IMG/VR virus record: IMGVR_UViG_3300017720_000003
Location: 1 to 64,000 of that record
DNA from: a virus
Taxonomy: Duplodnaviria; Caudoviricetes
Strand: one strand, 5' to 3'
DNA: 64,000 bases
Shown here: positions 2,754-4,830 of the stretch, piece by piece
How the letters are laid out: every line of letters begins with the position of its first letter
Position numbering within the stretch: the stretch's first letter is position 1
Notes under the pieces: generated by a model
Told to the model about the DNA's origin: nothing
Databases searched by the model: none
What the model saw: the letters and a program-made list of their open reading frames with translations, nothing else
Position numbers and translations under genes: made by a program

Positions 2754-2786
2754 AAAAGAAAAAGGGGCCATCTTCAATGGTCCCTT
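2754..2786 (-). terminator. Intrinsic terminator at the convergence of the two transcription directions
   Basis: Minus strand AAGGGACCAT-TGAAG-ATGGCCCCTT followed by a T-rich tract. Confidence 0.75.
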
Positions 2787-2830
2787 CATAGTATGTCATG
2801 GGTTTACCACAACTACATGTTTGTGAAGAA

Positions 2831-3220
2831 CTAATAAGTATTAGCTTTAGTTACTGCTTCCTGTAGTTCAGAAAGATCTATTGGGCATACTAGATCAAGA
2901 CCCGCTCTATAGTCTTCATATTGTATACCTTCTGCAAAGATTATTATAGTAGGTGCCATTCTAACTTTATAACTCTTTTTTGCTTTAGGTGCTTCTTTAA
3001 TATCACACTTATAATATTTAACTCCTGTAAGTTTATCCCATTCTTTAAATTCATTATCTTTATTAAAGTCAGCATAAAATTCTACTATTACAACAGCATA
3101 TGATTCCCCATAAGAATTTGTTCCACTAATTTTAGTATCAAAATTATCATCCGTTATCCATTCCTGTGCATGCATAGTATTGCAAGTAATGAATAATAAA
3201 ATTAACATTAAATTTTTCAT
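2831..3220 (-). CDS. Secreted thioredoxin-fold protein lacking CxxC
   Basis: Signal peptide ending MHA-Q; ITDDNFD..., VVIVEFYADFNKDN (WCGPC position), YKVRMAPTIIIF (cis-Pro loop) match thioredoxin topology. Confidence 0.75.
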   Translation of the reverse strand: MKNLMLILLFITCNTMHAQEWITDDNFDTKISGTNSYGESYAVVIVEFYADFNKDNEFKEWDKLTGVKYYKCDIKEAPKAKKSYKVRMAPTIIIFAEGIQYEDYRAGLDLVCPIDLSELQEAVTKANTY

Positions 3221-3222
3221 GT

Positions 3223-3513
3223 CTATCTTTGACTTAGTTCGTATAAACGCTCTTCCATCTTAGCTAAGGTTTGTTTGATTTCCTCAACATCTTCTTGTGT
3301 GGTCATTATAGTTTCTCTTATTAGTTCATCTTTTAGATCATATTCTACTCTTTCAATTGGGGGCTCAGGCCTCTCCATAGCTAATGCTATATCCGCCTTA
3401 AGTGTAAACCACATAGTTGACAGAGAAACTACAAATCCTACTATCATACCAATTGTTTTTAAATCTAAAGTTACTTTAGTTTGTTCCCCTATCTGAGGTG
3501 CTTGTTGTGCCAT
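3223..3513 (-). CDS. Single-pass membrane protein with C-terminal coiled coil
   Basis: Hydrophobic TIGMIVGFVVSLSTMWFTL segment, then heptad-like charged helix (VEEIKQTLAKMEERLYEL). Confidence 0.75.
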   Translation of the reverse strand: MAQQAPQIGEQTKVTLDLKTIGMIVGFVVSLSTMWFTLKADIALAMERPEPPIERVEYDLKDELIRETIMTTQEDVEEIKQTLAKMEERLYELSQR

Positions 3514-3519
3514 TATTTA

Positions 3520-4779
3520 TTATTTAAATGAAAAATTTAATCCAATGCTACTTTGATATAGTTCACTATCCCAAAATTTGCCATATTCTCCTTCTATAAA
3601 GACTCCAAAGTGTCTACTTAATTTCCATCCTAAGTTAATTCCCACATTGTAATCATCCCATTGTTCATGTTCAGAATCTTGTCTTAGTCCACCTTTACCC
3701 CAGTTATTTCTATTTAAATAACTAAAGTCTACATCTCCAGAGATGTATTTATGATTAGGTAGTATGTAGTTAGCATAAGCATGCAACCAAAACTTACTTT
3801 TATAGTGGTAAAAATCAAAACCAATTATAGGTGCTATCTCTCCAAATCCACTTAAAAGATCCCATTGTTCGTTATTGTATCTATTTATTAAATCTCTAAA
3901 AACTGTATTTCTAAAATCAATATCAGAATAAGCTACTATATTTCCATCAGCATCTTTCCAAATCCAATCAGTAGTTTCTTCCCCTGTAGCCGCATCAGTA
4001 TATGTAGTGTAGTGATCAGTATAACCATATTCAAATCCTAAAGAATACCAAGGGTTTGATGGAAACTCAATAGGATTACCATTCTCATCTAAAAAAGGAT
4101 TACCATCTTGGTCAAAAAACTGTTCAGTTTCATTAAGCCATATCTCAATTGGATTATAACCATAAGCACGTTCATGTGTACGGTAGATTGCACCGGCTGA
4201 AATACTAAACTTTTTACCTAGTGGTAGTCTTAGTCTGGCTTCAGCTGACTTGTAGTTTAAGTTAATGCTTCCTACTTCTCTTGATTCAGCTTTAACTATA
4301 TGATACTTACCAGTATGCTTAATAAATATTCTATGGTTATTAAATTCTTCACCACGTAATCTTTCTTTTTCAAAATGCAACTGATACTCTAATCCTGTTA
4401 GAGCTGAAGATGGGGCTGTGAATGCTAATTGTTGTTCAGTTCCGTCATACCAATTTCTTGGCTTTCTTTCATAGTTAAATCTAGCTAGTTTCCTTATTCC
4501 AAATCCTATTCTATAATCAAAGTCAAAGTATTCTGTTACATCTATTACACGGGGAATAGCATAAAGATCACCATCCGCTGGTCGTTCTACAAAAAAGTCT
4601 TGTCTGCTTGTCTGGTAAGAATTGCGTGCATCTCCTGCTGCATATATAGTTCCATACTGTAAAAAGTCTTCGTACAATGCTTTGAAGAATTTACCTTTTT
4701 GTTTTACTTCTTGTGAGTGAGAAGTATTAGGTAAACAAAGAACCACAATAAAAACCAACAGACTTAAATATTTTTTCAT
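3520..4779 (-). CDS. Putative outer-membrane beta-barrel protein
   Basis: Signal peptide ending SHS-Q; many alternating aromatic/Gly beta-strand patterns; C-terminus SSIGLNFSFK resembles a BAM beta-signal. Confidence 0.7.
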   Translation of the reverse strand: MKKYLSLLVFIVVLCLPNTSHSQEVKQKGKFFKALYEDFLQYGTIYAAGDARNSYQTSRQDFFVERPADGDLYAIPRVIDVTEYFDFDYRIGFGIRKLARFNYERKPRNWYDGTEQQLAFTAPSSALTGLEYQLHFEKERLRGEEFNNHRIFIKHTGKYHIVKAESREVGSINLNYKSAEARLRLPLGKKFSISAGAIYRTHERAYGYNPIEIWLNETEQFFDQDGNPFLDENGNPIEFPSNPWYSLGFEYGYTDHYTTYTDAATGEETTDWIWKDADGNIVAYSDIDFRNTVFRDLINRYNNEQWDLLSGFGEIAPIIGFDFYHYKSKFWLHAYANYILPNHKYISGDVDFSYLNRNNWGKGGLRQDSEHEQWDDYNVGINLGWKLSRHFGVFIEGEYGKFWDSELYQSSIGLNFSFK

Positions 4780-4821
4780 ATTTAAATATTAATATTATTT
4801 TAAATTCAGTTGGTTTATACT

Positions 4822-4830
4822 ATAATATAG
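4822..4830 (-). promoter_or_regulatory. Candidate phage promoter motif CTATATTAT upstream of the envelope operon
   Basis: Variant of the GTATATTAT motif found in several other intergenic gaps. Confidence 0.45.

Follow-up and report, generated by a model that had tools for sequence, protein, structure and literature searches.

A three-gene envelope module, tentatively linked to lysis, in a predicted crAss-like marine phage

The window analysed here, a whole stretch of 64,000 nucleotides, is the first 64 kb (positions 1 to 64,000) of the 77,450-bp IMG/VR viral record IMGVR_UViG_3300017720_000003, judged 68% complete. Near its start, three tightly packed genes on the minus strand, hereafter the trio, encode a predicted outer-membrane beta-barrel of 419 aa, a 96-aa protein with one transmembrane domain (TMD), and a 129-aa thioredoxin-fold protein. 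The trio is tentatively interpreted as a lysis-associated trans-envelope module, a reading that we hold to be plausible rather than probable. It would be a phage-only envelope module made with the late genes and acting at or around host lysis, where it would supply the step of the lysis programme that opens or couples the envelope, an analogue of the spanins by function and not a relative of them. An earlier reading of the letters alone (the original prediction) had described three closely spaced genes of this kind; their open reading frames (ORFs) and the gaps of 6 and 2 nt between them were confirmed (Table 1). It knew of no characterised system that shares this composition, and none was found in a search of the full-text literature, which does not extend to the supplements that may hold gene lists.

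Predicted products of the three genes

The 419-aa protein starts with a signal-peptide-like N-terminus that ends in SHS before Gln, as read from the sequence, and a small residue followed by Gln lies at residues 13–40 in 77 of 82 barrel homologues by a crude regular expression. The N-terminus of the 129-aa protein likewise resembles a signal peptide, ending in MHA before Gln, and the small residue with Gln recurs in all 36 of its homologues. In Bacteroidota, signal peptides tend to be cleaved before Gln (the Q-rule), and the original prediction had matched its proposed cleavage sites (SHS-Q and MHA-Q) to this rule.

AlphaFold2 modelled the 419-aa protein with a pLDDT of 68.6 from 52 aligned homologues and with a pLDDT of 81.0 (pTM 0.69) from 82 sequences including distant relatives. 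The 82-sequence model has 14 long strands (DSSP), an N-terminal helix at residues 30–40, and a mixed insert at about residues 205–310. The top Foldseek rows for the first model are exclusively outer-membrane barrels, at low TM-scores of 0.2–0.28, and VIA-align gave CymA as the best match for both models (Z 10.8 and 11.2), with TamA, CdiB, and BamA (10.6 each) and OmpG (10.4) next to it for the second model. PgaA (10.4), PelB (10.3), BcsC (10.0), and Omp33 (Z about 10) were matched as well, and the top 34 rows (Z 11.2 to 7.8) are all membrane beta-barrels. Because the structural matches are tied in Z, they indicate the fold and not the function. The 419-aa product is accordingly modelled, as first proposed, as a barrel, and is predicted to be a Sec-type exported outer-membrane beta-barrel, with a closed antiparallel barrel fold behind a cleavable signal peptide that is read from the sequence alone. 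The description of its C-terminus, GLNFSFK, as beta-signal-like holds in part: hydrophobic residues alternate in the last modelled strand (residues 405–416), but the chain ends in K or R in 58 of the 82 family members and in F or Y in 14, so that GLNFSFK is only partly a classic beta-signal. Invariant residues of the family include E131, H333, and E396, which would face the lumen.

By sequence, the barrel family appears to be an orphan with no curated model. The 419-aa protein matched no Pfam, PHROG, or NCBIfam entry, 22 family members scanned singly gave stray matches at most, and the family profile matched no PDB sequence at E ≤ 10. In the Protein Atlas, the 30 clusters nearest to the barrel are all viral and unnamed, and the nearest named ones are generic outer-membrane protein families at 0.92–0.93. 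BFVD contains one strong match, the unnamed A0A516LKJ4 (E 3e-27, TM 0.67/0.81), which was not traced to a record.

The 96-aa protein consists of a short N-terminus, one hydrophobic segment (residues 21–38), a Pro-rich linker, and an acidic C-terminal amphipathic helix, and its residues 76–93, as read from the sequence, have heptad-like 3-4-3-4-3 hydrophobic spacing, in keeping with the single-pass anchor and coiled coil of the original prediction. It weakly matches phrog_1009 (E 9.4e-4) and PspC (E 5.8e-4). Two other loci (L006:8866-9201, L007:8869-9204) carry a second, 111-aa paralogue of this membrane coiled-coil protein (phrog_20984, E 4.1e-14), which is encoded after a 143-aa lipoprotein, an arrangement reminiscent of an i-spanin and o-spanin pair.

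The 129-aa protein matches Pfam PF00085 (Thioredoxin) at E 6.1e-7, with 29.8 bits against a cut-off of 23.5. The CxxC motif is absent from 36 of 36 aligned relatives, in which Q19, D24, F48, P90 (the cis-Pro), and G98 are invariant and the C-terminal residue is always F or Y. The claim of a thioredoxin fold with no redox motif is thereby upheld, and the product is predicted to be an exported thioredoxin fold incapable of CxxC redox chemistry. The notion of a basic thioredoxin-fold protein that binds the acidic helix was dropped, since the mature 129-aa protein has a net charge of -6.

The original prediction had joined the three products into one complex across the envelope. Their predicted placement in three envelope compartments agrees with this; for the complex itself, a prediction with barrel residues 23–419, membrane-protein residues 38–96, and thioredoxin-fold residues 19–129 as partner scored 0.00, which is no answer and evidence for neither side.

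Linkage and distribution of the trio

The module is abundant: at E ≤ 1e-3, the barrel has 2466 homologues and the thioredoxin-fold protein 1468, many of them from ocean surveys. The barrel homologues fall into 241 clusters at 50% clustering, the best 120 homologues are 63–92% identical, and several bear Tara ocean labels on contigs of up to 125 kb. Linkage was examined in 66 loci with a barrel homologue, comprising 47 viral contigs close to the window, four contigs of metagenome-assembled genomes (MAGs), and 15 distant viral contigs gathered with a 31%-identical barrel relative as the query; the first two groups form the close family of 51 loci, and the P0161-like loci L053-L067 form a sister lineage.

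Hidden Markov model searches of all ORFs found the trio complete in 58 of the 66 loci. The remaining eight contigs (L025, L050, L054, L056, L060, L063, L064, L066) end 0–917 bp after the barrel gene, and L050, with 917 bp, is the sole incomplete locus long enough to be a possible exception. Most loci run barrel, membrane protein, thioredoxin; in L024, L041, and L049 the membrane-protein and thioredoxin genes precede the barrel gene and the three stay together, and inserts of 0.3–1.5 kb separate barrel and membrane protein in L002-L004, L016, L022, L031, L034, L035, and the sister lineage. The barrel remains 56–92% identical across loci in which the adjacent giant protein can no longer be aligned. 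The trio genes thus stay together across deeply diverged phage lineages, and the co-occurrence and synteny check proposed with the original prediction came out in its favour.

Two further gene families were observed beside the trio. A lipoprotein family of about 180–207 aa with no Pfam or PHROG match accompanies it in 18 loci of both lineages (L002:7244-7804, L005:7888-8430, L053:7786-8409, and 15 further loci) and is absent from the window's record. A staphylococcal-nuclease-fold gene (PF00565, E 2.2e-7) with no signal peptide lies directly 3' of the trio in the window's nearest relatives (L001:7940-8344 and L002-L004) and is absent from the window.

Among 185,579 species genomes, only four MAG contigs (L049-L052) matched, all with phage gene content, namely giant phage proteins, GroEL/ES-like genes, or tail-like genes. 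The MAG bins with trio contigs are labelled Maricaulis, Woesearchaeota, and Bacteroidetes (genomes G007 and G008 among them); the 'Woesearchaeota' archaeal bin, of 0.6 Mb, holds five contigs with barrel homologues, which suggests mis-binned viral DNA. A search of 400 other genomes, drawn from the phylum of one matching MAG, gave no match to the barrel family profile. A match to a known host operon, one of the refuting outcomes named with the original prediction, was not found in these searches, and the trio appears to be phage-only within what was searched, across several phage lineages. Neither the DNA of the region, nor the three proteins, nor the distant barrel relatives P0137 and P0180 matched any INPHARED isolate phage, and viral-locus searches with P0137 and P0131 and a genome-locus search with P0137 returned none.

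The sister lineage and its MshEN domain

Sister-lineage barrels are 28–30% identical to that of the window. The barrel, the transmembrane coiled-coil protein, and the CxxC-less thioredoxin are kept in nine of the 15 loci, the other six contigs ending early, and the order is barrel, lipoprotein, a 190–220-aa homologue of the membrane protein, and an exported CxxC-less thioredoxin (PF00085, E 1.9e-8). The extra N-terminal residues of the longer membrane protein, about 100 in number, precede the TMD and match NF053729, an MshE-related domain (MshEN) that binds cyclic di-GMP (c-di-GMP), above the cut-off of 38 bits in all four homologues tested (43.0–53.3 bits), a domain that the 96-aa protein, unlike these homologues, does not carry. 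Against the PDB, this region matches the N-terminal regions of PilB (E 1.6e-7), PilF, and MshE (E 3.4e-3). The domain also weakly matches the c-di-GMP-activated glycosyltransferase NfrB (E 4.9e-5). Since a nucleotide-binding domain must be cytoplasmic, the C-terminal helix of the membrane-protein family should be periplasmic, and for the 96-aa protein we infer an N-in/C-out topology in the inner membrane with the acidic helix in the periplasm. The cytoplasmic MshEN domain of the sister lineage would couple the module to host c-di-GMP. No paper on phage-encoded MshEN was found in the literature, and the fusion would be the first hint of a phage envelope device that senses host c-di-GMP.

Several other genes were noted near the sister-lineage module. 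A membrane protein that combines a POPDC domain (E 1.4e-13) with one for cyclic-nucleotide binding (E 2e-14) is encoded at L059:9091-9747, L062:5286-5939, and L067:9023-9667, a weakly GDSL-lipase-like protein (E 0.057) at L059:10169-10939, and a small zincin-like protein with HExxH (zincin-like proteins, E 6.7e-4) at L055:10976-11332.

Endolysin neighbourhood and the lysis reading

The lysis reading draws mainly on gene neighbourhood. In 30 of the 51 close-family loci, a Peptidase_M15_3 protein of 152–154 aa (Pfam E 5.5e-16; PHROG endolysin phrog_894, E 5.6e-28) is encoded on the same strand within about 2 kb of the trio. The spacing ranges from a 4-nt overlap with the barrel-gene start (L044, L052) to 1.9 kb, and in L043 the M15 gene lies 3 nt after the thioredoxin gene. 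Minimal cassettes run from a giant protein through an optional YfiM-like lipoprotein (NCBIfam E 4.1e-9; phrog_26616), the barrel, the membrane protein, the thioredoxin, and a 43–56-aa basic protein to the endolysin, after which come convergent ribonucleotide reductase (RNR) genes; in the window and most loci, RNR genes converge on the trio from the opposite side. In L018, L023, L026, L043, and L044, the homologue of the 96-aa protein is the only TMD protein with no signal peptide beside the endolysin. The cassette of L049 has a separate PHROG holin (phrog_3427, E 6.5e-18) directly after the endolysin; because this locus has its own holin and endolysin, the trio is left there as the envelope part with no assigned role. 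The trio forms the 3' end of the late structural and cargo operon, of which it contains the final genes, and according to a Crassvirales review the lysis genes belong to the late unit (PMC10136315).

On this reading, the barrel would weaken or open the outer membrane after the wall is cut, the thioredoxin-fold protein would be a periplasmic adaptor or chaperone for the barrel or the membrane protein, and the 96-aa protein could double as the holin in minimal cassettes. A bolder version, which we consider doubtful, would make the trio a third kind of outer-membrane-breaching lysis device beside two-component and unimolecular spanins. In it, a redox-dead adaptor with a thioredoxin fold would connect a BAM-inserted barrel with a single-pass inner-membrane protein; uncultured marine phages of Bacteroidota-type hosts would carry it in their thousands, and in one lineage a cytoplasmic MshEN domain would link it to host c-di-GMP.

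A number of observations weigh against a role in lysis. The M15 gene is absent from the 77-kb record of the window and from five related clade records, four of which are at least 94% complete and two of which are complete with terminal repeats. A candidate endolysin with PG_binding_1 (E 9.2e-11) and Amidase_2 (E 4.3e-10) domains does occur in five of the five clade records searched (the window's and four relatives), with no TMD protein beside it, and its distance from the trio is about 68 kb in the window's record and about 38 kb in a complete relative of 113.6 kb. A tblastn search of the window's record found no homologue of the holin, the YfiM-like protein, lipoprotein A or B, the staphylococcal-nuclease-fold protein, or p77; profile searches with PF08291, PF00959, and PF13539 returned none, and with PF01464 none in genome G000. 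No trio protein has a spanin or holin family match in Pfam, PHROG, or NCBIfam, the periplasmic part of the 96-aa protein, of about 58 residues, is short for spanning the periplasm, and a conservation as high as that of the barrel is unusual for lysis proteins. The adjacency of endolysin and trio could also merely reflect that both sit at the ends of late operons. As no lysis gene stands beside the trio in the window's own clade, the lysis link is an association in relatives only. Of the roles listed in the original prediction, a lysis device has thus gained a genomic context in the close family, but not an adjacent endolysin in its own clade.

Alternative explanations

Superinfection exclusion or receptor masking, by which the trio would remodel the infected envelope and block adsorption, genome entry, or the loss of progeny on debris, is unlikely on present evidence. 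Phage functions of this type include T5 Llp, Cor, and T4 Imm/Sp. The targeting of all three products to the envelope would suit such a role, as would the lack of a lysis gene adjoining the trio in the window's clade, and porin-like entries in viral structure libraries indicate that phage-encoded outer-membrane proteins exist. Exclusion genes, however, usually track receptor and tail diversity, whereas the trio is conserved where neighbouring tail or cargo proteins are unalignable and across records of different sizes; its packing with the endolysin in the close family and its position at the end of the late operon, not among early genes, also speak against exclusion.

The structural matches leave room for a gated outer-membrane channel for uptake or export, in which substrates would pass through the barrel, the thioredoxin-fold protein would bind them or act as a plug in the periplasm, and the membrane protein would regulate the system, in response to c-di-GMP in the sister lineage. 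Monomeric substrate channels are among these matches (CymA, Z 11.2; OmpG, 10.4; Tsx, 9.6; OprB, 9.2; KdgM, 9.2), as are the exopolysaccharide export barrels PgaA, PelB, and BcsC; the weak resemblance of MshEN to the glycosyltransferase NfrB and the convergence of the trio with RNR genes point the same way. We nevertheless judge a channel improbable: the Z-scores tie with those of Omp85 and autotransporter barrels and so speak for fold and not for specificity, the module includes no inner-membrane transporter, ATPase, or glycosyltransferase, and the single-pass 96-aa protein cannot itself transport. A lysis-timing pair, with the 96-aa protein as a class III-type holin, the thioredoxin-fold protein as its periplasmic antiholin, and the barrel as an accessory sensor, has a similarly small chance of being right. 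The class III holin layout (small, a single TMD, N-in/C-out by prediction) fits the 96-aa protein, which has no holin family match; in minimal cassettes its homologue is the sole non-exported TMD protein beside a cytoplasmic-type M15 endolysin, and the cytoplasmic sensor domain of the sister-lineage homologue would suit a regulated trigger. Against this pairing stand the separate holin of L049, the GTA_holin_3TM-like genes, just under the Pfam cut-off, near the trio in L057, L058, and L062, and a soluble domain far more conserved than is usual for holins.

Comparison with known systems

Among the systems closest to the trio are the two-component spanins, such as lambda Rz/Rz1. Both the trio and these spanins (PMC6139136) combine an inner-membrane protein that has an N-terminal TMD and a helical periplasmic domain with an outer-membrane partner, both are encoded by tightly packed genes, the trio adjoining the endolysin in many relatives, and both would serve the last step of Gram-negative lysis. 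The outer-membrane part of the trio, in contrast, is the 419-aa barrel, with a signal-peptidase-I-type SHS-Q signal and no lipobox, and not a small lipoprotein; a third, thioredoxin-fold component is added, the periplasmic domain is about 58 aa long, and the trio has no lysis gene beside it in the window and no spanin PHROG match. The 96-aa protein has the N-terminal TMD and heptad-like helix of an i-spanin, with its N-in topology deduced from the sister lineage. The trio is not a spanin by membership, as it has no o-spanin lipoprotein and no family match and lies outside the window's lysis cassette (in relatives it does occupy a cassette position), yet it could work like one.

Bacteroidetes phages are stated to use only unimolecular spanins (PMC12596118). 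Spanins of this type, such as T1 gp11 (PMC6139136), would meet the same need in phages that infect this host phylum, but no trio protein combines a lipobox with a C-terminal TMD. Outside the window, at record positions 76223-76408 on the minus strand (L075:324-509), a 61-aa ORF with a lipobox and a C-terminal TMD has the unimolecular-spanin layout; it is very short and matches only PHROGs of unknown function at E ~0.006, and no lysis family.

Other phage and cellular proteins resemble single parts of the trio. The T4 holin T (218 aa) works with the periplasmic antiholin RI, and this system of a lytic phage likewise pairs a single-pass N-in/C-out membrane protein with a small exported periplasmic protein; compared by layout alone, T4 differs in having no barrel component, and the membrane protein of the trio has 96 aa against 218 aa for T. 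Phage-encoded outer-membrane proteins are exemplified by lambda Lom and the phage porins, which, like the trio barrel, are outer-membrane beta-barrels inserted by host machinery, whereas the trio barrel has no relation to a curated outer-membrane protein family, comprises about 14 strands with an insert of about 100 residues, and is always linked to two partner genes. The 129-aa protein shares with the thioredoxin family (PF00085) a score above the model cut-off and a retained cis-Pro loop, and differs from it in being exported, in lacking CxxC throughout, and in its invariant Gln after the signal peptide and invariant aromatic C-terminus.

Outer-membrane passage at lysis by Bacteroidota phages is poorly charted, and a survey of 677 phages of Gram-negative hosts reports 91 in which no spanin was found (PMC6139136). 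A lysis role, if true, would add a new mechanism and give those who annotate marine viromes a marker for lysis cassettes; if the trio serves exclusion or solute movement instead, it would still be an uncharacterised and very widespread phage envelope system.

Genomic setting and transcription signals

The window has a G+C content of about 31%, and nearly all its genes lie on the minus strand, where they form one long late block. This block encodes the major head protein (phrog_11589 match), crAss tail ring proteins 1 and 2 (Pfam E 1.4e-7 and 5.1e-19), and giant virion or cargo proteins, which range from 1577 to 4517 aa and include one with a match to phrog_37948. Because head, crAss tail ring, and giant proteins occur together in the block, the source is assigned by gene content as an uncultured marine crAss-like phage. 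In the sister-lineage records CrAss_Ring_2 gave no match, which carries no information, since the control of that search matched nowhere either.

Table 1. Coordinates of the trio, its flanking signals, and related features (window positions unless a locus or the record is named).
Feature	Position	Strand	Basis
Barrel gene, 419 aa	3520-4779	-	ORF call; signal peptide residues 1-22 (nt 4714-4779), read from sequence
Membrane protein gene, 96 aa	3223-3513	-	ORF call; TMD residues 21-38 (nt 3400-3453)
Thioredoxin-fold gene, 129 aa	2831-3220	-	ORF call; signal peptide residues 1-18 (nt 3167-3220), read from sequence
Conserved upstream motif TATATTATnnTATAnACCAA	4810-4829	-	31-50 nt before barrel-gene ATG; candidate promoter element
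Intrinsic-terminator-like hairpin with U-run	2752-2786	-	RNA fold; between trio and convergent RNR genes
MshEN-bearing homologues of the 96-aa protein	L053:8964-9632, L057:8470-9048, L059:8045-8644, L067:8010-8639		NCBIfam
Candidate endolysin, PG_binding_1 + Amidase_2	record 72513-73433 (L068:1324-2244), outside window	-	Pfam

The trio had been described as a self-contained operon with a terminator at 2762-2786 and a promoter-like motif at 4822-4830. The terminator was recovered by RNA folding as a 10-pair hairpin (2786-2762) followed by the U-run 2761-2752, UUUUUCUUUU; a consensus scanner did not list this hairpin. The promoter-like motif sits within a conserved 20-nt motif, but the sigma-70-like matches of the region are at chance level (16 found against 14.9 expected). 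The 20-nt motif is kept 5' of the barrel gene in five of ten aligned loci (the window, L014, L001, L002, and L004) and occurs once in the window, where 2.4 occurrences are expected by chance at ≤3 mismatches. The word self-contained therefore applies to the terminator end, and to no other part: the promoter amounts to a motif that is conserved, and relatives carry the trio within a larger cassette that may include lipoprotein, YfiM-like, endolysin, and holin genes.

Two marine RNA-seq studies contain identical short contigs on the barrel gene. The RNA-library contig X18 corresponds to 4615-4792, and X19 and X20, from one sample, to 4367-4515; the contig end at 4792 is a weak hint of a 5' end near the upstream motif. 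Contig X16 is probably DNA, DNA carry-over is possible in these libraries, and the parts that they leave uncovered are uninformative. Their support for expression is weak because DNA can contaminate such libraries.

Two ORFs flank the trio in the window. Upstream lies the gene of an 1890-aa protein (4875-10547, minus strand) with an exonuclease-like segment at residues 416-613 (phrog_298, E 1.6e-12). On the other side, a 61-aa ORF with a GTG start and a lipobox-like N-terminus (2544-2729, plus strand) overlaps the end of nrdA and may be spurious; no homologue of it was found in 47 related loci, and it weakly matches the Rz-like spanin phrog_1275 (E 0.053).

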